IMG/VR virus record: IMGVR_UViG_3300028398_000004
Location: 1 to 59,488 of that record
Reading direction: 5' to 3' (one strand)
Length of the DNA stretch: 59,488 nucleotides
DNA from: a virus
Shown: piece after piece, positions 3,312-59,220 of the stretch
How positions within the stretch are numbered: the first letter of the stretch is position 1
Layout: every line of letters starts with the position of its first letter
Notes under the pieces: model-generated
Database searches by the model: none
Told to the model about the DNA's origin: nothing
The model's input: only the letters and a program-made list of their open reading frames with translations
Position numbers and translations under genes: made by a program

Positions 3312-3328
3312 TGTTCAAAAATGAACAT
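3312..3328. promoter_or_regulatory. 17-nt palindrome copy (minus strand reads ATGTTCATTTTTGAACA)
   Basis: tgttcaaaaatgaacat, starting 19 nt downstream of the stop of ORF 3348..3770. Confidence 0.6.
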
Positions 3329-3347: not shown

Positions 3348-3770
3348 TTAAACCACCCGAAGAATTTCATTACGGGGTTGGCCTATGCGAATAGGATTAC
3401 CATCGTCATCGGTATCCATCCCATCATTATAGCCAAGATCAGCTGTAAACTCAAGTCCAACAAGATCACTGTCCTCTGTCTCTTCCTCCGGATCAAGTCC
3501 CAAAGCAGTTAAGAAATCTTTAACCATACGCCACATGGTATTTGATTTTTCTTCATCATCAGACTGGAAGTCTTTATAATTACCATACCAAAGCGTATGA
3601 AAAACAGTAGCGGCATTGTCTTCGCCATCAATCTCACATACTAGCATGCAGCCATAACGACCTGTATTATTTGATTTTGTTTCCTTAACTTTCGTAATCC
3701 TAAGATCATACTCACCAGCTTCAACAGGTTTCTGATCAGGGATGTCACTTAAACTTGGAATAATAGCCAT
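3348..3770 (-). CDS. DUF669-like putative ssDNA-binding protein
   Basis: Track ORF trimmed to Met11 (ATG 3770), which has GGAG 7 nt upstream. MAIIPSLSD..PVEAGEYDLRI and an acidic tail. Sits directly after a Sak4-type ATPase, as in known phage recombination modules. Confidence 0.5.
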   Translation of the reverse strand: MAIIPSLSDIPDQKPVEAGEYDLRITKVKETKSNNTGRYGCMLVCEIDGEDNAATVFHTLWYGNYKDFQSDDEEKSNTMWRMVKDFLTALGLDPEEETEDSDLVGLEFTADLGYNDGMDTDDDGNPIRIGQPRNEILRVV

Positions 3771-3836
3771 AATAAATCTCCTTATTAAATAGATTAACAA
3801 AAGTAAGCTACCATTAGCTTACTATAAACAACTTTA

Positions 3837-11273: not shown

Positions 11274-11687
11274 TCAGTGAATGTTTATGATGTCTTTGAG
11301 CAATAGATCAAAAGATGTTGCTTTTCGTGGAGAGGCTTGCTTGATAGCTTTTTCATTGGCTTTTAGAGTTGCCTCTTGTTTTGACTTTGTAAAGCCATCT
11401 GATGTGTTGTAGTTATTTGCGATGACTTGGATTTCATCAGTATCTATGATTAACTTATCTGCATCAAGATAATTTACTTTGAAGGTAAATTTAAGTTTGC
11501 CGATGATGCGTTTGCCAATATCAATGCCATAGACTGAAAGTTCATTTTTCATTGCTTGCATGTCTTTTTGAATAAAATCTTCAACGGAGGCATGGATGGT
11601 TATTAGGCATTCTGCTTTTGAGAGTAGTCCATCACAATATTGTTGATATGTGGTAGCGTTTTGTTCCATTAGTTTTTTCATGCTCAT
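11274..11687 (-). CDS. hypothetical protein (137 aa)
   Basis: AAGGAG lies 6 nt upstream of the ATG. Confidence 0.65.
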   Translation of the reverse strand: MSMKKLMEQNATTYQQYCDGLLSKAECLITIHASVEDFIQKDMQAMKNELSVYGIDIGKRIIGKLKFTFKVNYLDADKLIIDTDEIQVIANNYNTSDGFTKSKQEATLKANEKAIKQASPRKATSFDLLLKDIINIH

Positions 11688-11721: not shown

Positions 11722-11738
11722 ATGTTCATTTTTGAACA
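11722..11738. promoter_or_regulatory. 17-nt palindrome copy ATGTTCATTTTTGAACA
   Basis: Exact 17-mer, 14 nt downstream of the stop of ORF 11752..12246. Confidence 0.6.
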
Positions 11739-11751
11739 ACAAGTTTTATTT

Positions 11752-12246
11752 TTATAACTGGGCAATTTTCTCTCTAAGCGCAGCTTGTTGTTTAGGTGAA
11801 AGTTGTGCAAGGAGTCGTTGGACTTCTGATAAAGATTTTTTGTGCCTGGTTTTCGGAACGCCTTTTGGTTTCAAAGTTCGCTCGTTTTTGTGGATAAAAA
11901 AGTCAAGTAGGGCAGCTTGTTTGTCCAGGTGCTCATATTTTTGTTTAAGATTTTGATGGCTTACTTGAGCTTGACGAAGTTCGGTGAGGGCTTTATTATA
12001 GGTTAGACGCGCCCTGGAGTATTGTTCTGAGGCTGCCTGAATGTTATTTATGTAATTGTCTTTTTCTGCTTGCATTTCTTGTTGGATGCAAGCAAGGCAA
12101 GTGTGCGGATATGAGATAATGCAGAGATTTTCACGATGCATTGCGGCAATGATTTTATGTTTTTTTGTAGATGAATATGGTTTGTTACAGATGATACAAG
12201 TGTGTTTGGCTTGTTCAGTGGTTTGTTCAGTTGTTTGAGTTGTCAT
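11752..12246 (-). CDS. zinc-finger plus coiled-coil hypothetical protein (164 aa)
   Basis: TTEQTTEQ repeat, CIICNK..CLAC pairs, long helical C-terminus. Confidence 0.65.
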   Translation of the reverse strand: MTTQTTEQTTEQAKHTCIICNKPYSSTKKHKIIAAMHRENLCIISYPHTCLACIQQEMQAEKDNYINNIQAASEQYSRARLTYNKALTELRQAQVSHQNLKQKYEHLDKQAALLDFFIHKNERTLKPKGVPKTRHKKSLSEVQRLLAQLSPKQQAALREKIAQL

Positions 12247-12316: not shown

Positions 12317-12817
12317 TTATTCTTCTCCTGATTTATCGCCTGATGTCCATTCTGGTGGCGGACTGAAGTTGGAAACTGTGTTAATTGTGCTATCGGTTGA
12401 ATGGTCTGATGATTCAGTTGAGATTGTATTTGGTGGAATGGCTAAATCAGTTTTTATTGCTTCTGCTTTTATGATTGCTTCACCTTGTTCATCCATTAGA
12501 CGTTGCCGAGGAGTTCGATTATCGGTTTGAGACGTTAATTTTTCATTTGAGGCAGTTGAGCCGAGTTGAGGCAAACTTTGTAGATGGGATTGTTTACGAA
12601 AGTTTCTGATATGTACAATCTCTTTTAACAATTCTTCAGGAACTGTTAGAGGATGATTGTTTTGAAGCTCTGATTTGGCAATGTAGTCATATAGGATTGT
12701 TTTGAGGATGGTGGCTGTTGAGTTGCATTGCCATGATGGTTCGATGGTGCGAATGGCTCGTAATGCACGAGCTAAATGATAGTTTGATAAGCGAAGACTG
12801 ACGGTTGGATTTGACAT
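12317..12817 (-). CDS. hypothetical early protein (166 aa), possible ribbon-helix-helix-like N-terminus
   Basis: The N-terminus TVSLRLSNYHLARALRAI is RHH-like, but this is a weak argument. Confidence 0.55.
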   Translation of the reverse strand: MSNPTVSLRLSNYHLARALRAIRTIEPSWQCNSTATILKTILYDYIAKSELQNNHPLTVPEELLKEIVHIRNFRKQSHLQSLPQLGSTASNEKLTSQTDNRTPRQRLMDEQGEAIIKAEAIKTDLAIPPNTISTESSDHSTDSTINTVSNFSPPPEWTSGDKSGEE

Positions 12818-13939: not shown

Positions 13940-13955
13940 CGTTCATGCGTGAACA
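13940..13955. promoter_or_regulatory. variant palindrome CGTTCA-tgcg-TGAACA
   Basis: Same GTTCA-N4-TGAAC core as the 17-mer family. Confidence 0.45.
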
Positions 13956-14002
13956 GGATCGGGAAAGCTACAAAACAGTTATTTTATTTACGTAGTTAAG
14001 GC

Positions 14003-14033
14003 ATAAAAAGGCGGATAGTAAAAATTATCCGCC
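14003..14033 (-). terminator. intrinsic terminator of ORF 14062..14442
   Basis: Stem GGCGGATA (14010-14017) pairs with TATCCGCC (14026-14033) around an 8-nt loop. A5 on the plus strand gives a U run on the minus strand. Confidence 0.7.
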
Positions 14034-14061: not shown

Positions 14062-14442
14062 TTAACTGAGCAAATCAAGTATTTGCTCTTTCGTGTAACC
14101 AGCAGATAAAAGTTTCTGCAGGTTATTCTTTGCCTTCTCTTCTTTAGTTTGCCTACGTTTTACCGTAGGTATCCAAGAAGTGAAATCCTCTGCAAGAATA
14201 TCATCTTGCAGATACTTAAAATTCCCCTTTTCATAGGGTTTTTTTACGCTTAACTTTGCACTTAACTTGTTCCGCACATATGCACGGAACTTTATAACTG
14301 CCTGATCCAGGGCAAGTTTCAAGATAATTTCATCCGAAATGAATCCTTGAAGTTCTTTCAGACTTTTGACTTTCAAACAATTTGGAATCTCTGTTTCAAT
14401 GGTTCTTCCACTCTTGTTGTCCTTAGTAATTATTGTTTTCAT
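14062..14442 (-). CDS. stand-alone early protein, paralog of ORF 6732..7097 (function unknown)
   Basis: Track ORF trimmed to Met33 (ATG 14442, GGAG 8 nt upstream). The longer form would overlap its own promoter. Motifs FRAYVRNKL and AEDFTSWIPT..TKEEKA. Confidence 0.75.
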   Translation of the reverse strand: MKTIITKDNKSGRTIETEIPNCLKVKSLKELQGFISDEIILKLALDQAVIKFRAYVRNKLSAKLSVKKPYEKGNFKYLQDDILAEDFTSWIPTVKRRQTKEEKAKNNLQKLLSAGYTKEQILDLLS

Positions 14443-14701: not shown

Positions 14702-14824
14702 ATTGTTGTTAGTTGGTAATTATAATGATTGTTATGTGAGAATAAATTTTATTTATGAATAAGAGTTACTGTTATAAGAGAGTGATTCTTATTGTTATGT
14801 GATAATGAGAGTTATTGTTATGTG
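14702..14824. repeat. iteron class B: ATTGTTATGTG x3 exact plus 2 variants
   Basis: Exact copies start at 14728, 14791 and 14814. Variants start at 14702 (ATTGTTGTTAG) and 14768 (ACTGTTATAAG). The last three are spaced 23 nt apart. Confidence 0.65.
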
Positions 14825-15052
14825 GGAACAATTATTAAGTGATAATGACTGATAGCCTGGACATGCCTCGCTTTTATATATAGCATAAGTGCTTTCTATA
14901 CTGATTTACGAAATTTTCACACATCATAGTCAAACTCAATATAATATTATTCAATAACTAACCTTAAAAATTTACGCCCAAGCAAAACTCAAAGCCGGCA
15001 TTTGCAACCTTGCTAAAGCAAACCAAAGCAAAAACCTCCATTCATTTTTTCC

Positions 15053-17480: not shown

Positions 17481-17496
17481 CGTTCATTGATGAACA
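17481..17496. promoter_or_regulatory. variant palindrome CGTTCA-ttga-TGAACA
   Basis: Starts 7 nt after the terL stop. Confidence 0.45.
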
Positions 17497-17629: not shown

Positions 17630-19825
17630 ATGCCACAGAACCAAGGAACAGGATTAGAATTTCCAATTGAAGACATTATTGGGCAAGATGCAGCCAATGG
17701 AGTAGTGCCAGCTGAGCAATCAGCAACTGCTCCAGTTCAAGCGGATCAAATATCTAATCAGGAAATCTCTAATATTCCGTCATCTAAAGTGCCTGTATGG
17801 GCCGATGAACAACCTGTGCAAGATATTATTAATCAGCAGCATACAGATCCTGATCTGATTCCTCATATTGAAAAAGAAGTTCTTCGTGCTGAAGCAGTAG
17901 TTCTTATAACTAATCTTGCTGAAAAACAATCAGATGAAACAATTGCAGATATTACAACAAAAGTTTTTGAAGGTTATAAGATTGATTTAGCAAGTCGAGC
18001 AGACTGGGAAAAACTTAACAAGCAAATTATTGATTTAGCCAAACTTCTTGTAAAGAAAAAGACATATCATGGAGAAGTTGTAGCTAATGTAAAATATCCT
18101 ATAATTGCAAATTCATGCATTCAATTTGCTGCAAGAGCATATCCTGAAATTGTTAAAGGTAATGATGTTGTTAAAGGTAAAGTAATTGGAGAAGATCCTC
18201 AAGGTACTAAGTTTGAACGTGCTCGTCGAGTAAGTGAATTTATGTCTTTTCAACTCCTGAATGAGATTGAAGATTGGGAAGAAGGTGTGGATCAGCTTTT
18301 GATAACTTTGCCTGCAATTGGTTGTGTTTTTAAAAAGACTTATTTTAATTCACTGACGCGACAAAATATAAGTGAAACAGTTTTTGCTGATGATTTAGTT
18401 GTCAATTATTTTACTGAATCACTTGAGCGTGCTCCACGAATTACTCATAAGATATACTTATATCATAATGAAATTGTTGAGCGAATAAATTCAGGAATAT
18501 TTAGTAAGTTTGATGTAGATGAGCTTGGTAAAGCAACATCTGATAAAACATCTGATACTGATGATGAAACACCACATTTGTTTTTAGAACAGCATCGATG
18601 GTATGATCTTGATGGCGACGGTTATCAAGAACCATATATTGTAACTGTACATGAACAGACACAGAAACTTGTTAGGATTGCTCCTCGATTTGCTTCTGAT
18701 GGAATTATTCGTAAGGATGGGAATGAAAATGGGCCAATAATTAAGATTGTGCCTGAGCAGTATTTTACGCGGTATCTTTTTATGCCGAGTATTGATGGTG
18801 GCTTTTATGGAATGGGCTTTGGTTCATTGCTTATGAGTGGAAATGCAGCTATTAATACATTGATAAATCAGTTGATTGATGCAGGGTCGTTATCAAATAG
18901 ACAGCATGGATTTCTTGGTCGTGGATTACGACTTGGTAGAGGTAAGTCAATTACACTAAAGTCTGGTGAGTGGAAGCCAGTTAATGCTACAGGTGATGAT
19001 CTTCGTAAAAATGTTTTTCCAATGCCTATTCGTGAGCCATCGAGCACATTATTTCAATTGCTTGGATTATTGATTGAAAGTGGTAAAGAACTTGCTGGAA
19101 TGACTGAAATTCTCTCAGGAAATTCTCCTGGAGCAAATGTTCCAGCAGAAAGTGTTTTAGCATTAATTGAACAAGGATTACAAGTTTATTCTGCAGTACA
19201 TAAGCGCATACATCGGGCACAGTATAAAGAATTTGTCAAGCTTCGTCGCTTAAATGCATTGTATCTTGATCAAATGACATATAGTACAGTACTTGATGAA
19301 AAAGCTATTGTTCAAGCTGATTTTTTCAATGCTGACTTTGATATTGTTCCTGTATCAGATCCGAACAATACGACTATGATGCAGCGAATGCTCAAAGCAA
19401 AGGCAATGCTTGAACTTCGTGGACAAGGATTAAATGATATGGAGATTATCCGTCGATATTTGATTGCGATGGATATTAGTGATATTGATGCTTTGATTCC
19501 ACAGGAACCTCAACAAGATCCAGCAGAACAACTTACCATGCAAAAGATGCAGGCAGAGATTGAAGAACTTGCAGCTAGAATTGATGAAATAAAATCAAAG
19601 ACTGCCCTGAATTATGCAAAAGTACAGTCTGAAGGTTATCATCAAAGTAAAACTGTAGCAGGCATAGAAAATGATGATAAAAAGATTGACTTAGAAACAG
19701 CTCAAGTTGCGAATCAAATTCAACTTGGACGATCACAGCAATCGATAGGAAAAGCGCCTGATGGTATAACAGATTATACAGCCAAACGTGAATATGGTTT
19801 AGAAACAAATAATAAGGAGCAATGA
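17630..19825 (+). CDS. portal protein
   Basis: 731 aa. Follows terL directly. The call rests on size and position, with no diagnostic motif claimed. Confidence 0.7.
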   Translation: MPQNQGTGLEFPIEDIIGQDAANGVVPAEQSATAPVQADQISNQEISNIPSSKVPVWADEQPVQDIINQQHTDPDLIPHIEKEVLRAEAVVLITNLAEKQSDETIADITTKVFEGYKIDLASRADWEKLNKQIIDLAKLLVKKKTYHGEVVANVKYPIIANSCIQFAARAYPEIVKGNDVVKGKVIGEDPQGTKFERARRVSEFMSFQLLNEIEDWEEGVDQLLITLPAIGCVFKKTYFNSLTRQNISETVFADDLVVNYFTESLERAPRITHKIYLYHNEIVERINSGIFSKFDVDELGKATSDKTSDTDDETPHLFLEQHRWYDLDGDGYQEPYIVTVHEQTQKLVRIAPRFASDGIIRKDGNENGPIIKIVPEQYFTRYLFMPSIDGGFYGMGFGSLLMSGNAAINTLINQLIDAGSLSNRQHGFLGRGLRLGRGKSITLKSGEWKPVNATGDDLRKNVFPMPIREPSSTLFQLLGLLIESGKELAGMTEILSGNSPGANVPAESVLALIEQGLQVYSAVHKRIHRAQYKEFVKLRRLNALYLDQMTYSTVLDEKAIVQADFFNADFDIVPVSDPNNTTMMQRMLKAKAMLELRGQGLNDMEIIRRYLIAMDISDIDALIPQEPQQDPAEQLTMQKMQAEIEELAARIDEIKSKTALNYAKVQSEGYHQSKTVAGIENDDKKIDLETAQVANQIQLGRSQQSIGKAPDGITDYTAKREYGLETNNKEQ

Positions 19826-19827
19826 AA

Positions 19828-20316
19828 ATGATTAAATATATATGTGTAAAAGAAGTATCTGCTAAACCTATGACTCGACAAGAATATAATGATTATCGAG
19901 GCTGGAAGCTTCCTTCAGATGAGAATGGGGATGATTGGGGTTATTTGAAGGATGATGGTCAAGGACATATTCAATGGGATCCTATAGAGATATTTAATAA
20001 ATATCATCAAGTTATTGATGGAATGACTTTTGGTCATGCGATTGAAGCAGCTAAACTAGGTAAGAAAATTGCTCGTAAAGGATGGAATGGCAAAAATATG
20101 TTTATTGTTTATATGGAGCCACTAAGCTTACCTCCATATAATACAAGTGGAACGCAGCGTAAAGTAAATGATCGAACGGCTAAATTTATTGGTAAAGATA
20201 AGCCACTGAATTGTCAGCCATATTTTGCAATGTATAATGCACAAGAAGAGTGGATTCTAGGATGGTCAGCAACACAAAGTGATATGCTGGCAAGAGATTG
20301 GATGATTGTAGAATAA
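19828..20316 (+). CDS. DUF2829 (Tad2-family) protein with an extra N-terminal domain
   Basis: The C-terminal half reads MTFGHAIEAAKLGKKIARKGWNGKNMFIV...GWSATQSDMLARDWMIV, which fits the DUF2829 signature. The second ATG (19828) has AAGGAG 8 nt upstream. The track start 19822 is only 2 nt from the RBS. Confidence 0.8.
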   Translation: MIKYICVKEVSAKPMTRQEYNDYRGWKLPSDENGDDWGYLKDDGQGHIQWDPIEIFNKYHQVIDGMTFGHAIEAAKLGKKIARKGWNGKNMFIVYMEPLSLPPYNTSGTQRKVNDRTAKFIGKDKPLNCQPYFAMYNAQEEWILGWSATQSDMLARDWMIVE

Positions 20317-20537: not shown

Positions 20538-20552
20538 TAAGGAGCAATGAAC

Positions 20553-20807
20553 ATGATTACGCCGGAGCAGTTTGCAGAGTGGAAAGAGCATCCAGTAACT
20601 AAAGAGATATTTGCTTTGCTGAAAGAAACTAAGCAAGGATTGCTGTATAAGTTGGAAAATGGAAATACTTTAGCTCAACATGCTGATGTAACACATGGTA
20701 TGACGCATCGAGTTGTAGGGCATATTGAAGGAATTAATCAGTTACTTAATATTTCTTTTGCTGATGCTGATGCTGAGGAAGATGTAAGTGAGGTGACTGG
20801 GCATTAA
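20553..20807 (+). CDS. hypothetical protein (84 aa; 86 aa if ATG 20547 is used)
   Basis: Has the same junction sequence as the Tad2-like gene. The second ATG has optimal RBS spacing. Confidence 0.65.
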   Translation: MITPEQFAEWKEHPVTKEIFALLKETKQGLLYKLENGNTLAQHADVTHGMTHRVVGHIEGINQLLNISFADADAEEDVSEVTGH

Positions 20808-20810
20808 ATA

Positions 20811-20847
20811 TGAACTAAGGCAGCTCCGCTGCCGCCTGAAGAGTTCA
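20811..20847 (+). other. GC-rich hairpin after ORF 20553..20807
   Basis: Inner stem GGCAGC-tcc-GCTGCC (20819-20833), flanked by TGAACT and AGTTCA. No U run. Confidence 0.4.
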
Positions 20848-20894
20848 GCTAGATTATAACTGTTAAAGCTAACAACTATTTAAAGGAGTAAGAA

Positions 20895-24347: not shown

Positions 24348-24364
24348 ATGTTCATTTTTGAACA
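24348..24364. promoter_or_regulatory. 17-nt palindrome copy ATGTTCATTTTTGAACA
   Basis: Exact 17-mer, 8 nt after the capsid stop and upstream of the terminator. Confidence 0.6.
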
Positions 24365-24377: not shown

Positions 24378-24417
24378 ATGTGTCGAGCTTCTTGTAGGAT
24401 GATGAAGCTCGACACAT
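24378..24417 (+). terminator. strong hairpin terminator after the capsid gene
   Basis: 14-bp perfect stem, ATGTGTCGAGCTTC (24378-24391) with GAAGCTCGACACAT (24404-24417). T-rich tail TCTTG follows. Confidence 0.7.
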
Positions 24418-41450: not shown

Positions 41451-44400
41451 ATGATAGATAATCAAACTATATCTAATCAAGTTAAGCAATCTAAGCAATC
41501 ACAGAATAATTCTGCTCCTGATTGGACATCTATTGAACAACATCCTGATTTTCAAACACTTGATTTTGCGACTCAAAAGAAAGCACGAAATAAATATTTT
41601 GATTCTTTCATTGCTCCGAGAGATGATTTTAAATCATTAGATTCTGATACTCAAGCATTAGCAAGAACTAAGTGGAATGATTGGACTCCTCCTGCAACAA
41701 AAGATCAGAATAGTGGATTAGCTGGGGATCTTGTTACTTCAGTTGAGAAAGGTGTGCTTGATTTACCAGGAATGGTTACAGGATTAGCTGATATTGTTCC
41801 TGCACTAATAACTGGTTCACGACCTTTTGATAAAATTACTGATACGATTGGTGAAGCAACTGGATTTCAACCAAGTAAATGGTCTAAGGAGCTTAATAAA
41901 GATTATTCACAGAAACATAAGCAGCAGCAATATAAAATTAATCAAGCATGGCAAGATAAAAATAAAACTGGTTGGGATGTTGCAGCAGAATATGCTAAAA
42001 ATCCTGGGTATGTTTTAAATCAAATTGCTGAATCATTACCAAGTATGGCTGTAGGTGGATTTGCTGGACGTGGAGCTATGCTTGCTGGAAAAGCAATTCC
42101 TGCATTAGAAGGAGTTGCAACTAAAATAGCTCCTGAAGCAATTGGATATTTAGAAAGAAAATTTGGTAAGGAAGCTGCTGCAGCTATTGCAGGTGGACTT
42201 GGTGAAGGATTAGTTCAGACTGGTCAATTAATGGATCAAGCCACTGGACAAGATCAACGAAAGAATGCAGTTGCTGCTCTTATATCTGGAGCTGCTGACG
42301 CACTTATTGCTGGTGGTGCTGGTAAAATAGCACAATCAATAGGTCTTGAAACAGCTGATACCTTGATGGCAAAAGGTTTACAAAGTAATCTGAAAAAAGA
42401 ACTTTCTTTAGGTAAAAGAGTTATTGGACGCACAGGGAAAATAACTGCTGGTGCTGCATCTGAAGGAGTTTTACAAGAGTTTCCTCAAAGTGCGCAAGAA
42501 CAAATTTGGCAAAACTATGCTGATGGAAAACCTTTGTTTGAAGGCGTCTCAAGAGCATCTATCGAAGGTGCTTTAGCAGGAATGTTTATAGGAGCTGGTG
42601 CAAATGCAATTAGCAATACATCTACAACGCCTGATACGAATACTTATGAAGGACAACTACAAAACCATGTAGATAATATTAAATCAAATGGAATTGATAA
42701 AATTCCTACCTCAATTGAAGCACTCACACAGAAGATAAATCAGAATAATCAAATGATGCAAGATCAAGAAACTCTTGATGCACTTGCAACAGAATCTGGC
42801 TATAAACCAGAAGAACTTCAATCATATCTTAAAGCTGAAAATAAATTTAATCAAGATTTAATAACGAAACTTCAGGAAGAGTTAGATAAGTCATCTGAAG
42901 AACAAGTATCTAAAAATACCACAGTTCAGCAAGCTTCAATTGATGAAGTTATAAATCAGCAACAAATAACTAATGCAGTACAACAAGCAAATCAAGAACA
43001 GCAAAAACAAGATCTAGATAATCGTATTAAGGCATTACGAAAAGCATATCTTAAAATGCCTGCATCTAATGAAAAAGAATCACTTGGAAATACAATTCTT
43101 AATCTTGTTAATGCACGAAAAGCATTAGATGAACAAACGATTCAAGAAGATCAATCATTTAAAACTACATTTCAACCAAGTAATGAACAAACTTCTTATA
43201 CTGATATATTAAAACAAAATAAAAATCCACAAGAACTAGCTCGTTCATTAAACTTATTAAATGAAGCTCCTGATGATCAAACAACTAACGAAGAAAAACA
43301 AGCCTTTTATGAGAAGTTGTTTAGTGCAATTCCTATTAATAAGGATGCAGCTGAGTCTGCAACAGTTATGCAGGAAAATCTTCCTCCAGAAATTTTAACT
43401 CAAAAAGGAACACCATACAAAAATCGTACAATATTAGAGAAACGTATATCATTGCTTGATAATGCAAATGATTATATAATTGTAGATACTCCTGAAGGAT
43501 TTATTGGAATTAAAAAGACATCAGTTACTGAAGACTCACTTGCGAATGATTCGCAAAGTTCGTTCAAAAATGAACAACAAATTCCAACAGCTTCGCAAGT
43601 TAATGAGCCTGTTCAAGTTATGTCTCCTATGGAGTTACAAGATAAACTTAATGCTAATCAACAACAACTTAATACTATTGTAGAGCAGCTTAAAACAACT
43701 ACTGATCCAGTTGAACAGCGAGCTTTACAAGAAGAAGGTGCATTACTGTATGAACAAAATACAGCGTTACAGACACAATTTGATAAACAAAATCAATCTA
43801 TTCAAAAACAACTGAATCAACCTATAACACTTGCAGAAGCAACTGCTGAGACAGCAAATATCGAACCGCAGTTTCAGACAACTGAGCAATTAAAAACTGC
43901 TCAGTTTAATTTTGTTAAAGATAATCATGGTAATGATCTTATAGGTTATCATGGAACAGCATCAGAACCCTTTGCTTCTTTTGATAATTCAAAAACACAA
44001 TCTTTTGAACATGGTTGGTCAGGTGATGGACATTATTTTACATTAAATAAAGATTATGCAAAAGGATATGCTGATATAGCAAATAATATTACTGGTAAAC
44101 CTGGTCGTATTATTGAGGCAAGATTTACTTTTAAAAATCCTTTATATAAAAATTCTCTTGAATATAAACAAATACTTAAAAATGCTATTGGGAAAATAAG
44201 TATTCTAACTAAAGAAGATGGTGTCAAAGCTACTAATGCCTTTAAACTTGCTGGTTATGATGCAGTTATTGATGGTCCTTCTCTAGATAAAGCATTTGAA
44301 ATTAATGTTTTTGATTCAAAAGATATTCATTATGCTCCTGGACAAAATCAATTCCAAACAACTGAACAGTCAAAAGTTAATCAAATTAATTTAGATAATA

Positions 44401-47400
44401 TTGAAAAAATATTTCCTGGGCAAGAAATTATTCAAGATACTAATAGAACGATTAACGTTCGATTTAAGAATGGTAAAGGATTAACAATTAAAAGCATTCA
44501 AGATGTTGGAGATGGCTTTATTCAGTTAGCTATTGAAACTGGACAAATGTCAAAGAATGGTAAAATTCTTGGTATTACTCAAGGAAATAATATATTATTA
44601 AATGAAAACTTTGCAGATGATAGAACATTATGGCATGAAAATAAACATGTTCTTGATAATCTTGGAATTATTACAAAAGAAGATAATGCAGCATTAAATA
44701 AAGAATTTAATAAACTTCGTCGTGTTGGTAAGCTTGAATTTGCTCTTAGTACTCATGAAGATCCTATCAAGCGAATGGAAGAAAATCGGGCTAATATGTT
44801 TGCTCAAATTATGGCAAACCGAGAAGCATATCGAAACACTATATTTGGTAAAGTAATTCAGCGTGTGATGGACTTCTTTCAACGATTACTTGCATTTGGA
44901 AAACAAACTATTGCAGGATTAGCTCGTGAAGTTGAGACAGGAAAAATCTATGAGCGTAAAGTTAATGGACAAACTGTTCAAACTACTGTACCACAATCGG
45001 AAGTAATGGCTGAAAAGTGGTATTCAGCTGTAGAGAATGCAGTGAAAGGTTTTCAGCAAAAACAAGCTTTGCCTGAGCAATGGAAAGGAATGATTAAAAA
45101 TATTCCTGGAGTTAAACAAACAGAACTTGATTGGATTGGTCTAGATGATTGGCTTGATAAACAAAAAGGTAAAGTTACTAAAGATGCTTTATTGAAGTTT
45201 ATTCAAGATAATAATGTTCAACTTGAAGAAGTTGTTAAGGAACAAAATTTTCTTACTGAGAAGGAATTAGATAATCTTTATATTGAATTAGTGCATAAAA
45301 ATGGTTATGATAATTCACAAGATATGCCAGAAGAAATAAAACAAAAAGTTACTAAAGAATATAATATTTTATTAGATCAATATGGAAGAAATCGTACACG
45401 TTTTAATGATGCTGATTATGTATTACCTAATGGAAAAAATTATAAAGAACTTTTAATTACATTAGAAAATAATTCAAATAGTAATTATCAATCTGATCAT
45501 TTTGACGAACCCAATATTTTAGCTCATGTAAGATTTAATGAACGTACTGATGCTGATGGAAATAAAGTTTTATTTATTGAAGAAATTCAAAGTGATTGGC
45601 ATCAAGAAGGACGTAAACTAGGTTATCAAAAATATCCTACTTTTAATGTAATTAAAAAATATGCTAAACAACGAGGCATTAGAATTGATACTCCGCCTTA
45701 TAAAGATTTATCTGCAAAAGTATTAAGACAATTACGTCAAGCTGCTGATAAAGAAGGAGAAAGTGCTTTATTAGAAGATGTATTAGATCAACATACTAAA
45801 GAAATAGATTCTTTAGAATATGGAGAGAAAGTTCCTAATGCACCAATGAAAAAAACTTGGCCATTACTTGCAATGAAGCGAATGGTTCGATATGCAGCAG
45901 AGAATGGTTTTGATAAAATTGCATGGACAACTGGAAAACAACAAGGAGCTCGTTATGGAAGTCCAGGTTTTAAATGGCTAAAACACCCTGATGGGTCTAT
46001 TGAAGTAGCTGCTAATCCTCAAATTAATGATCTTAATGCAGATGCTTGGAATAATTATAGTTTTATTGAAACAACTATAAAAACAATACAAAATAAACAA
46101 GAACTTTATGATTATATTGAAAAAACACTTGATGCTCAGATAGGAGAATATAGTCCAGAAAATTGGAAAAAATATATAACTGAGCAAACTAACAAATTAT
46201 GGAAACAAATACATGATTCTTTTGAGGGAATTTATTATCCTCGTTTAGAAGGTATGAAAGGATTTTATAATAAGGCCTTACCTCAAATACTTAATAAAGA
46301 GTTTAATAAAGGTAAATGGGGAAAAGCAAAAGTTGAGATTATTGATTTACCTGATATTGGTCAGCAATTAGCTTTACCAATTACTAAACGAATGAAAAAG
46401 AAAGCTCTTCGTGAAGGCATGCCACAATTTAAAGCACGAGAACTTTCAGTACCTGAACAAGCTCTTGGAGGATTATTAAATAAAAAGACTGATACAAATA
46501 CTCCTGAATTTAAGAAATGGTTTAATGGTTCAATAGCAGTTAAGCCTGATGGTTCTCCGATTGAATTTTATCATGGGACGAATGAAGTATTTGATACATT
46601 TGATCCAAATAAAGAATCAAAAACAACTCATACTACATCTACATTAGGACATTTTTTTACTACTGATAAGAAAACTGCTTCTGCATATGGACAGCATGTG
46701 TTACCAGTTTATTTACATATTCAGAATCCATATAAAATGTCTTTTCAAGAAGCAACTTCCTTGAAAACTCTTGAAGAATCAAAACAACGTCAACAAGAAC
46801 TTATTAATGAAGGATATGATTCTATAATAATGGAAACAGGAACAAATCCTTATGTTATTGTTTTTGATTCAAGCCAAGTAAAATCAGTTTATAATCAAGG
46901 CAATTGGAAAGCTGCTGATAATATTTATTTTGAAACTAGAGAACAAACAGAACCTAAGCAAAAGATTTCTGATGCGGAATATAACGAGCTTTTTAAACAG
47001 AAAGCAAATCTTATTCAAAAGTTTATTCAAACAGCAAAAATTCATGCACGCGATTTAAAGCATTTAACTGATCGTTTGACTGGCTCGATTTCAACTCGTT
47101 TAGCAAATGCTAATCCAATGTTACGTGATAAAGTTCGACGATTAGATTTTGATACATCGCAAAGAATTATTAAAATATTGCATACGGCTAAACCATTGCT
47201 TGATAGTCTTAGTAAAATGTTTCCAGAAGATAAACATGCTTGGAACATTGCAAGAATACAAGGTGATACAGCTAAAATAAATCAAATTGCTGAGCGATAT
47301 GGCTTACAGGAACATCAAGAAAAACTTAGGGAAGAGTTGAATCAAATTCGTCAAGATGCTCGAGATGTTGGTTATGATGTTGGTTTCATTGATGAGTATT

Positions 47401-49322
47401 GGCCACGAATAATCAAAGATACCGAAGGTTTCTTGAAAGCAACTCAAGAAATATCTCAACACCCTGAATTTACTGATGCACTAAAAGAAAAAGCTAAACA
47501 AATGGGAATTTCATTTGAACAGCTTAATAGTGAGTTCCCTGAAATTCGTGCTGATGTTATTAGTAATATGATTTTAGGTAAGCATCCTGGAATTGGTGGT
47601 CCTGGAAATATTAAAAGTCGTGTATATGATACTGTACCAAAAGAACTTTTACCATATTATATGAATTCTGATGCAGCGCTGATGCGATATATTTATTCAA
47701 TGTCAAAAAAGATTGAAGCTCGAAAATTCTTTGGAAAGATTCCACAAAAAGTTCAGTTACATAAACTTGCAATAGCTAAAGCAAAAGCAGAGTTATTACA
47801 AATAGGTAATCTCAAAGGGCAAGAGAAACGTAAAAATGAACTTAATGATCTAATTAAACTTCACGAAGAAAAATTAAATCAATATAAAGAACAACGAGAT
47901 TATACTGAAAATATTGGTGCTTATGTTGATGAATTAATGCTTACAGGTAAATTACATAAGAAAGATGAACATATTGTTCGTCAAATACTTAATGCAAGAT
48001 TTAATGAGCATGGAACAACAGGTATTGTAAATGCTTATAAAAATATGGCCTATATTGATGTTATGGGTAGTGTTACATCTGCAATGACACAAATAGCCGA
48101 TACTGTTTGGGCAGCTTATGTAGGTAAGGTATGGACACCTAAAGGATTCTTACGTACTGCTCAAAATATTGCTCGTGCAATTATAGGTAAATCTAAAATG
48201 ACTAAAGAAGAATTAGGCATTGAAAGAATTGCACAAGAATTTGCAGATGGTACAACTTTAGGCAAAGCGGTAAGTAAAGTATTTTGGGCAGTTGGATTAA
48301 CTAAACTTGATTCTATTGGAAAAGAAGCATTATTAAATAATGTTTTAATGAACTATCAAGATCAAGTTAAAACCCAATCAGGAATAGAAGCTCTTAAAAA
48401 GAAAATTCGTCCTACTTTTGGTCGTGAAACTGATCAAGTAATTAAAGATTTAATCTCAGGAGAACATTCTGATAATGTTAAAATGTTAGTTTATTCACGA
48501 GTATTAGATTTTCAACCAGTTGCCTTATCTGAAATGCCAGAGTTTTACCTGAATGGAGGCAATCGACGAGTATTTTATATGTTGAAAACATTTACTTTAA
48601 AGCAAATGGATGTATTTCGTAATGAAGTATTTCATGAACTTGCAAGTAAAGATCCTAAACGAGTTGCACAAGGTATAAAAAATATGGTTGCCTTAACCTC
48701 ATTACTTGTATTAGCTAATGCAGGAGTTGATGAATTAAAAGATTATGTACTTGGAAAAGAAACAAGATTCAAAGATAATGTTATTGAGAATTTTATGTCT
48801 TTAGGTGGAGCATCACGTTATATGCGGATGCAAGTAACAAGGAAAGGAATTTTCTCTGCTGGTATGCAACAAATATTACCACCATTTAAATTCTTTGATG
48901 CAGTTGGATCAGACATCCATGAGAAGATTGTCACAGGTGATATTGCTAAAGGTTTAAGATCAGTTGATTCAATACCTTTATTTGGTAAGCTTTGGTATTG
49001 GCATTATGGTCGTGGATCACAATTAAAAAGAACATTGAATGAACAGGATTTTTCTAAAGTAGGGAAAAAAGTTAGAAAATTTCAAAAGCAGCTTGATAAA
49101 GCAATAAATAAAAGATTATTCTTACAAACACATCCAACTGAATTTAAACAAATGATGCTTTATAAGAATATAAGTAAGTCATTAAATAAAAATAAAAAAA
49201 TGATTAACTCATTAAAGAAACTAAAGCAAACTCCGTTGATATTGAAACGTATCGGGCAATTAGAAAAACAACAAAAGTTAATCTATGCCCGATACTTTGA
49301 AATGGCTAAAAAGATTCAATAA
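41451..49322 (+). CDS. giant polyvalent-type virion protein (2623 aa)
   Basis: Uninterrupted ORF, last gene of the structural arm. Gly/Ala-rich hydrophobic N-terminal region. Two ART-like modules, an HExxH module and a long helical C-terminal region. Confidence 0.85.
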   Translation: MIDNQTISNQVKQSKQSQNNSAPDWTSIEQHPDFQTLDFATQKKARNKYFDSFIAPRDDFKSLDSDTQALARTKWNDWTPPATKDQNSGLAGDLVTSVEKGVLDLPGMVTGLADIVPALITGSRPFDKITDTIGEATGFQPSKWSKELNKDYSQKHKQQQYKINQAWQDKNKTGWDVAAEYAKNPGYVLNQIAESLPSMAVGGFAGRGAMLAGKAIPALEGVATKIAPEAIGYLERKFGKEAAAAIAGGLGEGLVQTGQLMDQATGQDQRKNAVAALISGAADALIAGGAGKIAQSIGLETADTLMAKGLQSNLKKELSLGKRVIGRTGKITAGAASEGVLQEFPQSAQEQIWQNYADGKPLFEGVSRASIEGALAGMFIGAGANAISNTSTTPDTNTYEGQLQNHVDNIKSNGIDKIPTSIEALTQKINQNNQMMQDQETLDALATESGYKPEELQSYLKAENKFNQDLITKLQEELDKSSEEQVSKNTTVQQASIDEVINQQQITNAVQQANQEQQKQDLDNRIKALRKAYLKMPASNEKESLGNTILNLVNARKALDEQTIQEDQSFKTTFQPSNEQTSYTDILKQNKNPQELARSLNLLNEAPDDQTTNEEKQAFYEKLFSAIPINKDAAESATVMQENLPPEILTQKGTPYKNRTILEKRISLLDNANDYIIVDTPEGFIGIKKTSVTEDSLANDSQSSFKNEQQIPTASQVNEPVQVMSPMELQDKLNANQQQLNTIVEQLKTTTDPVEQRALQEEGALLYEQNTALQTQFDKQNQSIQKQLNQPITLAEATAETANIEPQFQTTEQLKTAQFNFVKDNHGNDLIGYHGTASEPFASFDNSKTQSFEHGWSGDGHYFTLNKDYAKGYADIANNITGKPGRIIEARFTFKNPLYKNSLEYKQILKNAIGKISILTKEDGVKATNAFKLAGYDAVIDGPSLDKAFEINVFDSKDIHYAPGQNQFQTTEQSKVNQINLDNIEKIFPGQEIIQDTNRTINVRFKNGKGLTIKSIQDVGDGFIQLAIETGQMSKNGKILGITQGNNILLNENFADDRTLWHENKHVLDNLGIITKEDNAALNKEFNKLRRVGKLEFALSTHEDPIKRMEENRANMFAQIMANREAYRNTIFGKVIQRVMDFFQRLLAFGKQTIAGLAREVETGKIYERKVNGQTVQTTVPQSEVMAEKWYSAVENAVKGFQQKQALPEQWKGMIKNIPGVKQTELDWIGLDDWLDKQKGKVTKDALLKFIQDNNVQLEEVVKEQNFLTEKELDNLYIELVHKNGYDNSQDMPEEIKQKVTKEYNILLDQYGRNRTRFNDADYVLPNGKNYKELLITLENNSNSNYQSDHFDEPNILAHVRFNERTDADGNKVLFIEEIQSDWHQEGRKLGYQKYPTFNVIKKYAKQRGIRIDTPPYKDLSAKVLRQLRQAADKEGESALLEDVLDQHTKEIDSLEYGEKVPNAPMKKTWPLLAMKRMVRYAAENGFDKIAWTTGKQQGARYGSPGFKWLKHPDGSIEVAANPQINDLNADAWNNYSFIETTIKTIQNKQELYDYIEKTLDAQIGEYSPENWKKYITEQTNKLWKQIHDSFEGIYYPRLEGMKGFYNKALPQILNKEFNKGKWGKAKVEIIDLPDIGQQLALPITKRMKKKALREGMPQFKARELSVPEQALGGLLNKKTDTNTPEFKKWFNGSIAVKPDGSPIEFYHGTNEVFDTFDPNKESKTTHTTSTLGHFFTTDKKTASAYGQHVLPVYLHIQNPYKMSFQEATSLKTLEESKQRQQELINEGYDSIIMETGTNPYVIVFDSSQVKSVYNQGNWKAADNIYFETREQTEPKQKISDAEYNELFKQKANLIQKFIQTAKIHARDLKHLTDRLTGSISTRLANANPMLRDKVRRLDFDTSQRIIKILHTAKPLLDSLSKMFPEDKHAWNIARIQGDTAKINQIAERYGLQEHQEKLREELNQIRQDARDVGYDVGFIDEYWPRIIKDTEGFLKATQEISQHPEFTDALKEKAKQMGISFEQLNSEFPEIRADVISNMILGKHPGIGGPGNIKSRVYDTVPKELLPYYMNSDAALMRYIYSMSKKIEARKFFGKIPQKVQLHKLAIAKAKAELLQIGNLKGQEKRKNELNDLIKLHEEKLNQYKEQRDYTENIGAYVDELMLTGKLHKKDEHIVRQILNARFNEHGTTGIVNAYKNMAYIDVMGSVTSAMTQIADTVWAAYVGKVWTPKGFLRTAQNIARAIIGKSKMTKEELGIERIAQEFADGTTLGKAVSKVFWAVGLTKLDSIGKEALLNNVLMNYQDQVKTQSGIEALKKKIRPTFGRETDQVIKDLISGEHSDNVKMLVYSRVLDFQPVALSEMPEFYLNGGNRRVFYMLKTFTLKQMDVFRNEVFHELASKDPKRVAQGIKNMVALTSLLVLANAGVDELKDYVLGKETRFKDNVIENFMSLGGASRYMRMQVTRKGIFSAGMQQILPPFKFFDAVGSDIHEKIVTGDIAKGLRSVDSIPLFGKLWYWHYGRGSQLKRTLNEQDFSKVGKKVRKFQKQLDKAINKRLFLQTHPTEFKQMMLYKNISKSLNKNKKMINSLKKLKQTPLILKRIGQLEKQQKLIYARYFEMAKKIQ
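43900..44340 (+). other. ART-like module 1 inside the giant protein
   Basis: ..LIGYHGTASEPFASFD..SGDGHYFTLNKDYAKGYA..IIEARFTFKNPLY..AGYDAVID..AFEINVFDSKDI. His codon at 43950. Confidence 0.5.
44634..44648 (+). other. HExxH (HENKH) zinc-metallopeptidase-like motif inside the giant protein
   Basis: The codons cat gaa aat aaa cat were read in frame. Context is RTLWHENKHVLDNLG. Confidence 0.45.
46505..46890 (+). other. ART-like module 2 inside the giant protein
   Basis: EFKKWFNGSIAVKPDGSPIEFYHGTNEVFDTFD..TLGHFFTTDKKTASAYG..VLPVYLHIQNPY..EGYDSIIMETGTNPYVIVFDSSQV. His codon at 46572. Confidence 0.55.
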
Positions 49323-51505: not shown

Positions 51506-51522
51506 ATGTTCAAAAATGAACG
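51506..51522. promoter_or_regulatory. 17-nt palindrome copy, one mismatch (minus strand CGTTCATTTTTGAACAT)
   Basis: atgttcaaaaatgaacg, 15 nt downstream of the stop of ORF 51537..51716. Confidence 0.55.
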
Positions 51523-51536
51523 TTCAGTTATAAGGC

Positions 51537-51716
51537 TTAAACTTCAAGTAATTCCACGAGTTGTTCAAGTTCTTTTGCACAAGTTAAAATACCTTGATTA
51601 ATTCCATCAAGTTTAACATTATGTAACTTAGCTTCTTCTGAACCATTACGCTTATCATCAAGAGCTACTATTTTACGCCATTTTTCAGTTAATGCTAAAA
51701 GCATTTCTTTTTTCAT
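51537..51716 (-). CDS. small helical protein (59 aa, below track cutoff)
   Basis: AAGGAG RBS. MKKEMLLALTEKWRKIVALDDKRNGSEEAKLHNVKLDGINQGILTCAKELEQLVELLEV. Confidence 0.6.
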   Translation of the reverse strand: MKKEMLLALTEKWRKIVALDDKRNGSEEAKLHNVKLDGINQGILTCAKELEQLVELLEV

Positions 51717-53941: not shown

Positions 53942-54529
53942 TTAATTTTTATTTTTAATATAATTGCCCCATTGATCTACAATAGCTTGAGCAATTCCAG
54001 GAAAAGTCATTGAACGTAATCTTGCACGATTCTTTGATATAGGCATATTATAAATTAAATCTTTTCGTTCTTTCACAATATTTGTTGGAATTAATCGAGG
54101 AAGGTTTTTTCGAGCAAATCCAGTTGTTTTATTAATCGGATGTCCAAATTGCCAAGGATGAATATATTGAACATTAGATAAATATTTAAAAATTACAGAA
54201 CTTGGATTTTCTAATGCTACATGTGGAGCAATTTCACAAGCCCTTTTCCATAATATTTTTGTCCATTCAATAGCGAGTTGACGTTGTTCATATTTAGGTT
54301 TACCCTTAGCATAATATCTATTACCTGATAAGCACATCGCTGTACATGGTGGATGAAGAATAATTAATGTCCATTGATCTTTTTGTAAAACATCAAAAAT
54401 ATTCATTTGATAATGATATTTAGAATCACCTTGAGTTGGACGTAAGTCACAGCTATAAGTATCAAAGCCAGCTTTACGAAAAGTCTGGCAAAGTATTTGC
54501 GATTCTTCGCAACCTATTAATATTTTCAT
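53942..54529 (-). CDS. minimal C5-cytosine-methyltransferase-like protein lacking a target-recognition domain
   Basis: 195 aa. PPC (LHPPCTAM), ENP (ALENPSS) and a C-terminal SKNRARLRSMTFPGIAQAI resemble Dcm motifs IV, VI and IX-X. Motif I is atypical (IGCEESQ). Confidence 0.45.
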   Translation of the reverse strand: MKILIGCEESQILCQTFRKAGFDTYSCDLRPTQGDSKYHYQMNIFDVLQKDQWTLIILHPPCTAMCLSGNRYYAKGKPKYEQRQLAIEWTKILWKRACEIAPHVALENPSSVIFKYLSNVQYIHPWQFGHPINKTTGFARKNLPRLIPTNIVKERKDLIYNMPISKNRARLRSMTFPGIAQAIVDQWGNYIKNKN

Positions 54530-57798: not shown

Positions 57799-59220
57799 TT
57801 AAATTCCATCTACATCAGCTGATATTCCAAGAAAGTTTTCTAACCTGACATAAAATTCAGGAATATATTTTTGACTTTTATCACATCCAATAGGCATCAT
57901 ATTAGCTTTAGCCGCACTAATCAGACAATTCCCTGAACCTGCAAAAGGGCTTAAAAAAATTGTTCCAGGTTTACCAAGTGCTTTTATAAAATGATCATAA
58001 AGCTCTATTGGTTTTTCCCATTGATGAATACGATTAGCACTTGCAACTGTTTCAACACTAATTGCGGATAACATACTGGAAACATTAAATTGTGCTTCAC
58101 CTTTACGCATGACAAGATACATTTCCCAATTACTAATCATATTCTTTTTAGGAATATTTGTACTTCCACCTTTTTTAATCCATGCCCCAGGCTGCTGAAC
58201 AATAAATCCAATATCTTGAGCTATTTTAGTTATTTCAATAAAATGTTCTTTTCCTGTCCAACATAATAACCAGCTTCCATCAAGCATTTTCTGATAAATC
58301 AATGGAAGATAATTAAAATAAAATTCATAAAGTTCTTTTTCAGTCCAATCGGTAGCTTTACTTTTAATCTTTGATGTTTTTCCATATATCTTATTAAAAT
58401 TAATTGCATATGGAGGATCAAGTTCTACCATACCAACTGAATTATCAGGTACTTTATTAAGAAATGTTTTATAATTTTCAGCAACATAAATAACTTGAAT
58501 TTTACGTTGAGCTACTTTTTCTGTTTCTATGACAACTTTTTTTGCCTCATCTGCTTTTTCTTTAGTATATTCAACAGATTTAGCAACTACATCAGGCACA
58601 GTATTTTTTATAGGTATTTCAGTCACTCCAGCCTGAAGATCCATTAAACGTTTCTTTTCTTCATCACTAAAACTATCCATACGTTGAATTGCAGCCGCTT
58701 GATTACCAAGACGTTTATAAAGTTCTTTTGCACGGCTTTTCGTAGTTTGTTCTTTTAATTCAGGAAATACTTTTAATGCTTCTGCAAAAGCAAGATCTGT
58801 TGATAGGCCACCTAAACTACATTTCAAACGCTTAGCTGTTTCACGATAGCCCCAAGATTTTCCTTCTTGTTCAGCAGCACTTTTCCAAAAATTATGAAGC
58901 TTATACTTAAGTTCAATTTCTTCATGCCATTTAAATTCTTTTCGATCCATATTAGCAAGCAATTCAATCAATGTATGATCATCTTGGCTAATACCATCAA
59001 TCACTCGAACCTCAATTGTGTCTCTGCCAAGATGTTCAATAGCACGAATACGATGAAGTCCATCAATCAGTACATTATCTGAATTAACTAAAACTGGAGC
59101 TAATTGACCAACCATTGCAATAGAATCAGCTAATGATGATACATCACCTACATCCATTCTTGCACGATCTTTAATAATAATATCTTTAACAAGTTTTTCC
59201 TCTATCTGAAAAAATTTCAT
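57799..59220 (-). CDS. ParB-like N-terminal domain fused to an N6-adenine/N4-cytosine DNA methyltransferase
   Basis: 473 aa. ParB box LIDGLHRIRAIEHLG. Methyltransferase motif IV ELDPPYA comes before motif I SPFAGSGN (beta-class order). Confidence 0.85.
   Translation of the reverse strand: MKFFQIEEKLVKDIIIKDRARMDVGDVSSLADSIAMVGQLAPVLVNSDNVLIDGLHRIRAIEHLGRDTIEVRVIDGISQDDHTLIELLANMDRKEFKWHEEIELKYKLHNFWKSAAEQEGKSWGYRETAKRLKCSLGGLSTDLAFAEALKVFPELKEQTTKSRAKELYKRLGNQAAAIQRMDSFSDEEKKRLMDLQAGVTEIPIKNTVPDVVAKSVEYTKEKADEAKKVVIETEKVAQRKIQVIYVAENYKTFLNKVPDNSVGMVELDPPYAINFNKIYGKTSKIKSKATDWTEKELYEFYFNYLPLIYQKMLDGSWLLCWTGKEHFIEITKIAQDIGFIVQQPGAWIKKGGSTNIPKKNMISNWEMYLVMRKGEAQFNVSSMLSAISVETVASANRIHQWEKPIELYDHFIKALGKPGTIFLSPFAGSGNCLISAAKANMMPIGCDKSQKYIPEFYVRLENFLGISADVDGI

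Follow-up and report, generated by a model that had tools for sequence, protein, structure and literature searches.

The RAT sites of BglG-LicT systems and the nut hairpins of lambda, of which an operon has one or two, are recognized by known proteins through a conserved loop or bulge. As small hairpins located just ahead of a terminator or overlapping its 5' arm they resemble the element described here, and the order cro-nutR-tR1 is matched by the succession of gene stop, hairpin, and terminator at its sites. T7 RNase III sites are likewise recurrent intercistronic hairpins, one of which lies near the capsid gene. The conserved inverted repeats (CIRs) of the Streptomyces phage phiC31 are reportedly highly conserved palindromic repressor operators in intergenic positions genome-wide, including upstream of the regulator gene, and conserved palindromic intergenic copies across the genome would thus be a shared property. 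Furthermore, the stoperators of Cluster A mycobacteriophages (L5 gp71-type repressors) were proposed to stop elongation in addition to initiation (PMC9283540). Stoperators, too, are many near-identical short sites on both genome arms, found intergenically between co-directional genes and in promoter regions. T4-like PeSL cassettes, finally, are repeated composite stem-loops between genes bordering variable regions (PMC4122927, PMC2839356), which is again similar to what we report.

The element analyzed here, GTTCA-N4-TGAAC (the core), recurs in a phage genome of 59,488 nt, the whole stretch of DNA analyzed, which we call the window. Its local form there is a 17-mer that belongs to a family-wide element, Y-GTTCA-(N4)-TGAAC-R. 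The core is a palindromic, terminator-fused boundary site in an uncharacterized phage family, situated at the transition from one transcription module to the following one, and it occurs in about 5-7 copies per ~60-kb genome of that family. As a regulatory signal that is conserved throughout a large family of uncultivated phages, it marks the boundaries of transcription units and can aid annotation. A symmetric, sequence-specific phage protein probably docks at the core and controls the run of transcription between modules. The reading that we favor, with a probability of roughly 0.45, is that the core serves a dimeric phage regulator as a stoperator-like operator present in multiple copies and fused to terminators.

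The phage genome and its core copies

The window carries a 127-bp terminal direct repeat and is therefore a complete phage genome of about 59.4 kb, assembled as a circle, which had no nucleotide match among GenBank phages. Its minus arm, running from 14540 to 1 and continuing from 59488 to 49369, is devoted to replication and recombination (NAD ligase, AAA_24, DUF669, PD-(D/E)XK nuclease, UvrD helicase, ThyX, RepB-type primase, exonuclease, DUF3987, PolA, and two methylases), and the plus arm encodes terS-like, terL, portal, capsid, and tail genes as well as a polyvalent protein with an ART domain. Pfam and PHROGs scans were run on the replication/early-arm ORFs and the larger structural ORFs. 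The scanned ORFs contained no phage RNA polymerase, sigma factor, or recognizable DNA- or RNA-binding regulator and gave no match to an HTH or RHH family, and the annotated ORFs of this scanned subset included neither an integrase nor a partition gene. The window furthermore had neither an Rfam match nor a tRNA gene. Sigma-70 promoter scans remained at chance level, and no promoter was attached to the window copies of the core; TGAAC as a sigma-70 -35 element was rejected on the same grounds and for want of a consistent -10 at 16-18 nt. N4-like hairpin promoters served by a phage RNA polymerase were also dismissed, the giant ORF encoding the polyvalent protein with its ART domain and no polymerase. 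A search for the host via prophage relatives returned only distant matches of ~50% identity in Alphaproteobacteria and a mis-binned MAG.

The core copies and two terminator-like features of the window are:

3312..3328, minus strand: core copy 1, ATGTTCATTTTTGAACA, 19 nt past the stop of the DUF669/SSB-like gene 3348..3800, with an AACT box 4 nt upstream on the sense strand
11722..11738, listed on the minus strand, the 17-mer letters being on the plus strand: core copy 2, 13 nt past the stop of ORF 11752..12246
13940..13955, minus strand: core copy 3, CGTTCATGCGTGAACA, without a flanking stem
14000..14033, minus strand: intrinsic terminator without a core, GGCGGATA...TATCCGCC and then TTTTTAT, past the first early gene 14062..14442
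17481..17496, plus strand: core copy 4, CGTTCATTGATGAACA, 7 nt past the terL stop and ahead of the portal gene
24348..24364, plus strand: core copy 5, the reported site, 7 nt past the capsid stop codon
24378..24417, plus strand: strong terminator-like hairpin with a 14-bp stem, 14 nt downstream of copy 5
43561..43577, listed on the plus strand, the 17-mer match being on the minus strand: core copy 6, exact core within ORF 41451..49322
51506..51523, minus strand: core copy 7, ACGTTCATTTTTGAACAT, 13 nt past the stop of ORF 51537..51716

An earlier note on this DNA had placed exact 17-mers at 24348-24364 and 11722-11738 on the plus strand and at 3312-3328 on the minus strand, all of which we recovered in those positions and orientations. 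Its one-mismatch copy is real as well, lying one base away from the 51506-51522 given there, at 51507-51523 on the minus strand. All six of its intergenic copies exist, and a seventh has to be added to its total, at 43561-43577 on the minus strand inside ORF 41451..49322, where two mismatches to the 17-mer both fall in the flank and the core is exact. The term exact palindrome, which it used, holds for a 6-4-6 inverted repeat and not for the full length, as the spacer is non-palindromic. By the ORF coordinates it was right that five copies begin 7-19 nt past stop codons, and the separate strong terminator that it saw after the capsid copy corresponds to the hairpin at 24378-24417 (-32.8 kcal/mol for the region, z = -5.4), analogous hairpins being present 3' of the core in relatives.

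Matches to GTTCA-N4-TGAAC start at 3313, 11724, 13941, 17482, 24350, 43562, and 51508, and a count against shuffled controls, which the same note had put forward, gave these 7 copies vs 0.09 expected from dinucleotide shuffles. Allowing one mismatch in the core added none in the window, where 2.25 were expected by chance, so that a site is either a perfect core or none at all. Intergenic DNA makes up 8.5% of the genome, yet it contains six of the seven copies (binomial P = 2.5e-6), and a TTTT/AAAA spacer is common to five of the seven. They sit on both genome arms and divide each into modules, following the direction of transcription. Thus, the core shows what a multi-copy operator would show, namely many near-identical intergenic copies on both arms and above chance. 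Partial outer arms, AACTTG...CAAGTT, surround some of them, and arrays of extra half-sites around cores were lacking except for the distal copy of the long form described below.

The individual copies differ in their surroundings. Copy 2 lies 34 nt ahead of the ATG of ORF 11274..11687, within a poorly conserved gene block, and copy 7 lies 19 nt ahead of the primase ATG; together with copy 1, these two border genes with few or no homologues among relatives. Copy 3 is situated just 3' of the terminator of the first early gene and heads both a non-coding iteron region and the operon containing ORF 12317..12817, and one relative (L216) shows the same order of terminator, core-like site, iteron region, and family gene. 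The core at the terL/portal junction, copy 4, was found only in the closest relatives (L081-L084). Copy 6 lies in the 2623-aa polyvalent-protein gene, where it encodes F-K-N-E-Q, and may be a coding coincidence; no relatives of this protein segment were found.

Considered as RNA, the window copies form stems of 5-6 bp with two G-C pairs and folding energies of -3.6 to -4.7 kcal/mol (-4.7 for copy 2), have non-significant z-scores, and are not followed by a U-tract. Because of these energies and z-scores, the window hairpins are too weak to act through structure alone. A stable G+C-rich stem followed by a U-run, as expected of an intrinsic terminator, is missing from the window copies and appears only in the extended and long forms of relatives. 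Terminator scans of the window made no call at core copies, the strict scan being too stringent to inform, and comparisons of sense and antisense folding energies were set aside as they track the G+T-rich composition of the strand. Within the window, only the capsid copy adjoins a terminator, the remaining copies having none, and the core-less intrinsic terminator at 14000..14033 demonstrates that termination in this genome is possible without a core. The earlier judgment that a plain terminator role is less likely therefore stands for the window, with its weak stems and missing U-tracts; the separateness from terminators on which it relied does not extend to relatives, where the core is often the terminator tip or overlaps it.

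Conservation, anatomy, and RNA structure in relatives

IMG/VR contains 444 relatives of the capsid protein, compared with none among GenBank phages, and a core lies at most 110 nt past the capsid stop in 72 of the 78 testable loci (63 with N4 and 9 with N5 spacing). Downstream of the DUF669/SSB-like gene it is present in 40/40 loci, down to 45% protein identity, at distances of 16 to 741 nt that vary because tRNA genes and small ORFs are inserted between the two, and upstream of the primase gene it is found within 70 nt in 4/5 relatives of 55-72% primase identity (L168, L169, L171, and L175). The motif is thus retained at the syntenic junctions of relatives, where the earlier note had recommended looking. 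Most close relatives have one further copy in the divergent spacer upstream of terS and another heading the minus-arm early operon. Relatives with a terL identity of 59% or less had no core copy and no substitute palindrome, and elsewhere in IMG/VR, outside the family, the extended pattern AACTTGNNGTTCANNNNTGAAC occurred only as coding coincidences in unrelated genes. Judged by this distribution, the core is specific to the phage family, and such confinement points to a phage-encoded partner rather than a host factor. LexA-like and parS-like host-factor sites were considered and discarded, their geometry being different and the motif being limited to the family.

Throughout these relatives the ten arm bases are invariant, while the spacer sequence is free, and the flanks show a symmetric preference for Y at -1 and at spacer position 1 and for R at spacer position 4 and at +14. 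Cores with an AACT box and exactly one arm mismatch numbered 4 in 2.87 Mb of relatives, which is the chance level, vs dozens of exact copies, and G.U-compatible arm variants were absent from the window and from relatives. One and the same 14-mer is used in both orientations to transcription, as TAAG after the capsid gene and as CTTA after DUF669. Positions -1 and +14 form Watson-Crick pairs 34 times vs 49 expected under independence, and C.A 29 times; they are not under selection as a base pair, and the data suit a half-site YGTTCA better than a sixth RNA pair. An absolute strand bias of the AACT box was dropped as a feature, the figures being 53 vs 18 once either outer arm was allowed, and promoter-proximal copies had no orientation bias of this box.

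Spacer length is fixed within each clade. About 30 contigs have essentially only N4 sites, while in four contigs of one sub-clade every site is N5 except for a single N6. Since the whole sub-clade changed to N5 at non-homologous positions and with differing spacer sequences, the concerted step from N4 to N5 implies a trans factor with fixed geometry. Conserved half-sites, a free spacer sequence, and a spacer length fixed per clade are what an operator would display. Furthermore, some copies lack a flanking stem, namely those in the divergent terS/early spacer and those 35-40 nt ahead of the Shine-Dalgarno (SD) sequence of the early operon, and these control-region copies have no hairpin extension.

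Elsewhere, the surroundings of many copies have clearly been selected as RNA structure. The flanks of post-capsid copies form extended covarying stems (-8.9 vs -6.7 kcal/mol with shuffled flanks, P = 2e-5), and folding is strong over the ~100 nt that begin at the core (-23.6 vs -15.4 when shuffled, P = 3e-16), mainly at stop-codon-proximal copies. Many relatives possess a full form, AACTNGNY-GTTCA-N4-TGAAC-RNCNAGTT with a T-rich tail, which amounts to a canonical terminator. After DUF669, at least 19 distinct relatives have a long form, in which the left arm plus spacer (GCTGTTCACTTA in one example) pairs with its perfect complement TAAGTGAACAGC located 22-26 nt downstream, enclosing an inner hairpin and followed by a U-run. 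In an alignment of these sequences, 96% of the 15-bp stem is paired, compensatory changes affect 8/15 pairs, and none of 500 shuffles did as well; one of its pairs is U.G in 15/19 sequences, which marks the sense-strand RNA. The proximal TGAAC is invariant though unpaired in this stem. Long forms can amount to interrupted helices of roughly 23 bp with an internal loop, and a similar arrangement is seen in L183, of the N5 clade. In many relatives, then, the core either caps a terminator or provides a second pairing partner for a terminator's 5' arm.

A putative DNA operator and its rivals

Half-sites that never vary, a spacer that is A/T-rich but otherwise free, symmetric flanks, and a geometry that changed in concert together make up the classical signature of a dimeric reader of double-stranded DNA, and the dimeric DNA-binding protein envisaged in the earlier note offers the best anatomical fit to the invariant arms, free spacer, Y/R flanks, and N4-to-N5 switch. 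A trans factor is needed, as structure alone cannot explain the invariance of the arms, the missing wobble variants, and the clade-wide change of spacer length. We infer that this factor binds DNA rather than RNA, and we gave the operator the highest weight because invariant arms with a free centre are typical of operators and atypical of RNA-hairpin readers, because stem-less copies lie in control regions, and because the closing position is unpaired. By analogy with stoperators, the factor may block elongation, which would be its natural action given that copies 2, 4, 5, and 7 lie between co-directional genes without room for a promoter.

In the proposed mechanism, a phage-encoded symmetric protein, dimeric or higher, would contact both half-sites of the double-stranded DNA but not the A/T-rich spacer between them and, once bound, would stop or slow host RNA polymerase between co-directional genes. 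Read-through between modules would then depend on the amount of the regulator, which at the head of the early operon would control its own expression. As the operator palindrome lies in transcribed DNA, its RNA copy would seed a hairpin, and in many relatives this hairpin would have grown into an intrinsic terminator or come to overlap with one, the two elements becoming a single boundary cassette.

A candidate for the trans factor, already named in the earlier note, is encoded on the early arm:

12317..12817, minus strand: candidate trans factor, a conserved early protein

This protein has the N-terminus MSNPTVSxRxSxYHLARxLRAIR, a low-complexity linker, and a conserved C-terminal peptide VTDFSPPxEW. 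Its N-terminal 70 residues are highly conserved, with the alternating residues T5, S7, R9, and S11 invariant and followed by two helices, the first at 12-25. Ribbon-helix-helix regulators consist of an N-terminal beta-strand and two helices and form an intertwined dimer, and the alternating pattern may resemble their DNA-reading strand. The AlphaFold model of the N-domain (pLDDT 76) shows a coil and then three helices, and searches of Pfam, PHROGs, and PDB profiles, as well as Foldseek on two AlphaFold models, gave no match. The family has 1-3 copies per genome, and its homologues occurred only at motif-bearing loci in 48/48 fetched loci, a count confounded by phylogeny. A core lies at most 1.5 kb upstream in 24/41 family genes and at most 100 nt upstream in 6/41, figures that shared ancestry inflates. 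A core heading the operon of a family member would suit autoregulation of the candidate, and ORF 12317..12817 or a paralogue may be the factor.

Several observations speak against the core as a DNA operator. The long-form overlap in at least 19 relatives is just what an RNA antiterminator/terminator switch would need, and a DNA-only model turns it into a by-product. Integrase and partition genes were not seen, which leaves no evident need for a silencing repressor of the lysogeny type. A roadblock directly ahead of a terminator would seem to contribute little, and no DNA-binding domain was found in the scanned phage proteins.

The strongest competitor, doubtful but to be taken seriously, would be an RNA switch, in which a phage RNA-binding protein recognizes and stabilizes the GUUCA-N4-UGAAC hairpin and thereby alters termination, the hairpin sharing the 5' arm of a terminator or preceding it in a RAT/BglG-type or nut-type manner, or, near a start codon, alters translation or mRNA stability. 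It is the sole model directly explaining why a terminator was repeatedly built on the left arm with the proximal right arm kept, as seen in the covarying 15-bp stem on left arm and spacer with its U-run and in the invariant yet unpaired TGAAC. The covarying extended stems of post-capsid copies, the strong structure of the ~100 nt from the core onward, the core directly ahead of a strong terminator in the window and in many relatives, and the location of copies 2 and 7 ahead of start codons fit it equally. However, readers of RNA hairpins such as boxB, MS2, and RAT usually need the opposite of a free loop on an invariant stem, and the conserved loop or bulge with a cognate RNA-binding protein that marks an antiterminator site is lacking, the loop sequence being free. 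Zero G.U-compatible arm variants, a closing position that is often C.A, a loop without strand-specific sequence in a duplex used in both orientations, and several stem-less copies in probable promoter regions argue against it as well; where the core is the terminator tip, sequestration of an arm is impossible, and the scanned ORFs held no RNA-binding protein. In a more specific version, a family-specific protein would clamp the 5-bp GUUCA/UGAAC hairpin, one small regulator gating read-through at every module boundary, which we regard as rather unlikely. If true, it would amount to a genome-wide RAT-like antitermination network with an unusual stem-reading protein and an N4-to-N5 co-evolution in one clade.

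Dispensing with a dedicated factor, the copies could be related intrinsic terminators or 3'-end stabilizing hairpins, spread by common descent or gene conversion. The canonical-terminator full form in many relatives agrees with this, and the TTTT/AAAA spacer shared by five window copies hints at homogenization within the genome. We consider it improbable nonetheless, since the arms are invariant at 45% DUF669 and 55% primase identity while flanks and lower stems change freely, one-mismatch and wobble variants are absent, RNA structure gives no reason for the clade-wide N4-to-N5 switch, the window copies lack U-tracts and have stems too weak for termination, and core-less terminators serve elsewhere in the genome. 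Lower still we rank a site for an endoribonuclease, of RNase III type or a hairpin-specific phage enzyme, cutting polycistronic RNA between modules, which is very unlikely to be the explanation. RNase III requires a double-stranded RNA helix of some two turns, in which an internal loop is common, and the 5-6 bp stems of the window fall far below this, which also removes the comparison with T7 RNase III sites drawn in the earlier note. Placement at junctions and the ~23-bp long forms, which resemble T7 R sites in outline, fit such a role, but the U-runs after long forms point to termination and not processing, and no phage nuclease with such a role was identified in the scanned ORFs. Only a slim chance, somewhat above that of a processing site, is left for the core as mainly a short homology patch for module swaps between co-infecting relatives. 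PeSLs are composite terminator/promoter motifs at plastic regions (PMC4122927), and this reading is favored by copies 1, 2, and 7 at genes with few or no homologues, by the tRNA genes and small ORFs inserted between DUF669 and core in relatives, and by a phage-encoded recombination set (AAA_24, DUF669, and the PD-(D/E)XK nuclease). Yet homologous recombination needs more than 10 invariant bases interrupted by a variable spacer, palindromy, exact arm conservation, and the spacer-length switch are left unexplained, and no conserved promoter follows the window copies.

For experiments, the 16-bp site provides a handle, since nature has already switched its specificity between N4 and N5 and the early proteins to be considered are few. 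If the factor binds DNA, boundary control of the stoperator kind would be extended to phages that are apparently lytic, by way of a palindrome fused to terminators; if it binds RNA, a new kind of hairpin-gated antitermination would emerge.

Comparison with known systems

T7 RNase III sites are helices of ~20 bp or longer with an internal loop, as opposed to the 5-6 bp of the window copies. PeSLs are longer homology patches made up of a terminator and an early sigma-70 promoter, whereas the core has no attached promoter in the window and only 10 invariant bases. With regard to RAT and nut, the core differs by its free loop, its invariant stem, its use in both orientations, and the fact that no antiterminator protein was found. 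Stoperators are asymmetric 13-bp sites bound by a monomer, present in more than 20 copies per genome and in one orientation only, and belong to temperate phages; the core, in contrast, is a palindrome implying a symmetric oligomer, has ~7 copies, is often fused to a terminator, and comes without visible lysogeny genes. The phiC31 CIRs serve a temperate-phage repressor whose protein is known, and sequence, host, and phage family are unrelated to ours. The core comes closest to L5-type stoperators and phiC31 CIRs in its working principle, to RAT and nut in its RNA architecture, and to the T4 PeSLs in its placement.

Genome ends and gene content

An exact direct terminal repeat of 127 bp (1-127 = 59362-59488) shows that the window is a complete genome, assembled as a circle of about 59.36 kb, and that the minus-strand arm, which carries the replication and recombination genes, runs unbroken across the window ends. 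Several further genes and domains are encoded in the window:

19822-20316: Tad2-like domain (Thoeris anti-defence), just after the portal gene, an order shared by the related locus L216
41451-49322: polyvalent protein of 2623 aa with an ART-PolyVal ADP-ribosyltransferase domain; no relatives in IMG/VR for residues around 550-850
53942..54529 and 57799..59220: two DNA methyltransferases
54526-57039: family A DNA polymerase with a uracil-DNA-glycosylase-superfamily domain at its N-terminus

The protein family of ORF 12317..12817 (minus strand), the candidate trans factor for the palindromic core GTTCA-N4-TGAAC, ends in a conserved peptide, (I/V)-(S/T)-x-V-(T/S)-D-F-S-P-P-x-(E/D)-W (window 12317-12370), preceded by a low-complexity linker. 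The peptide points to a motif at which a host protein docks.

Core surroundings and arm-like sequences

In different relatives (loci L177, L179, L210), the stretch from the DUF669 stop codon to the core has gained tRNA-like sequences and small ORFs, so new cargo builds up upstream of this boundary element. In several relatives a second conserved inverted repeat is found downstream of the long-form terminator, which is built on the left arm of the core; it is probably a promoter/operator of the next unit. Many relatives also carry a short conserved ORF between the core upstream of terS and terS itself, and the window holds no obvious counterpart of it.

L194:10800-10880, also L200, L201, L206: second inverted repeat, TATTTATCTTTACTAAG, ~25 nt, then TTTAGCAAAGATAAATA containing TAAAAT
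L118:7850-7910, homologous positions in L025, L034, L094, L102: 17-codon ORF with a strong SD (MFAGIMEKAGKLSPYAF)

Within terS of many relatives (L041:2883, L044:2925, L090:9711, and others) lies GTTCAC-N-GATGAAC, which encodes F-T-D-E with a synonymously varying spacer and is absent from terS of the window; it may have arisen by coding coincidence, or it may be an intragenic copy with a function, such as a pac-related one. Everted arms (TGAACT...AGTTCA) at window 20811-20848, directly 3' of gene 20547..20807, form a stem enclosing an inner GGCAGC/GCTGCC hairpin, and may have arisen by chance or be a diverged relative of the core element.

Non-coding repeat regions

The divergent control region at window 14585-14850 contains two more repeat families, to which other regulators or terminase may bind:

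TAAGATAGTTTT / GATAGTTTGCC: 4-5 copies, plus one at 13898
ATTGTTATGTGA: 3 copies

A long non-coding stretch at 13250-13830 holds nine GTTTAC/GTAAAC repeats and, at about 13455-13550, an inverted repeat of a G-run and a C-run. In L216 the homologous gene is likewise preceded by such a region, which there contains a poly-C/poly-T/poly-G hairpin. By its appearance, the stretch in the window looks like an iteron-type replication origin.
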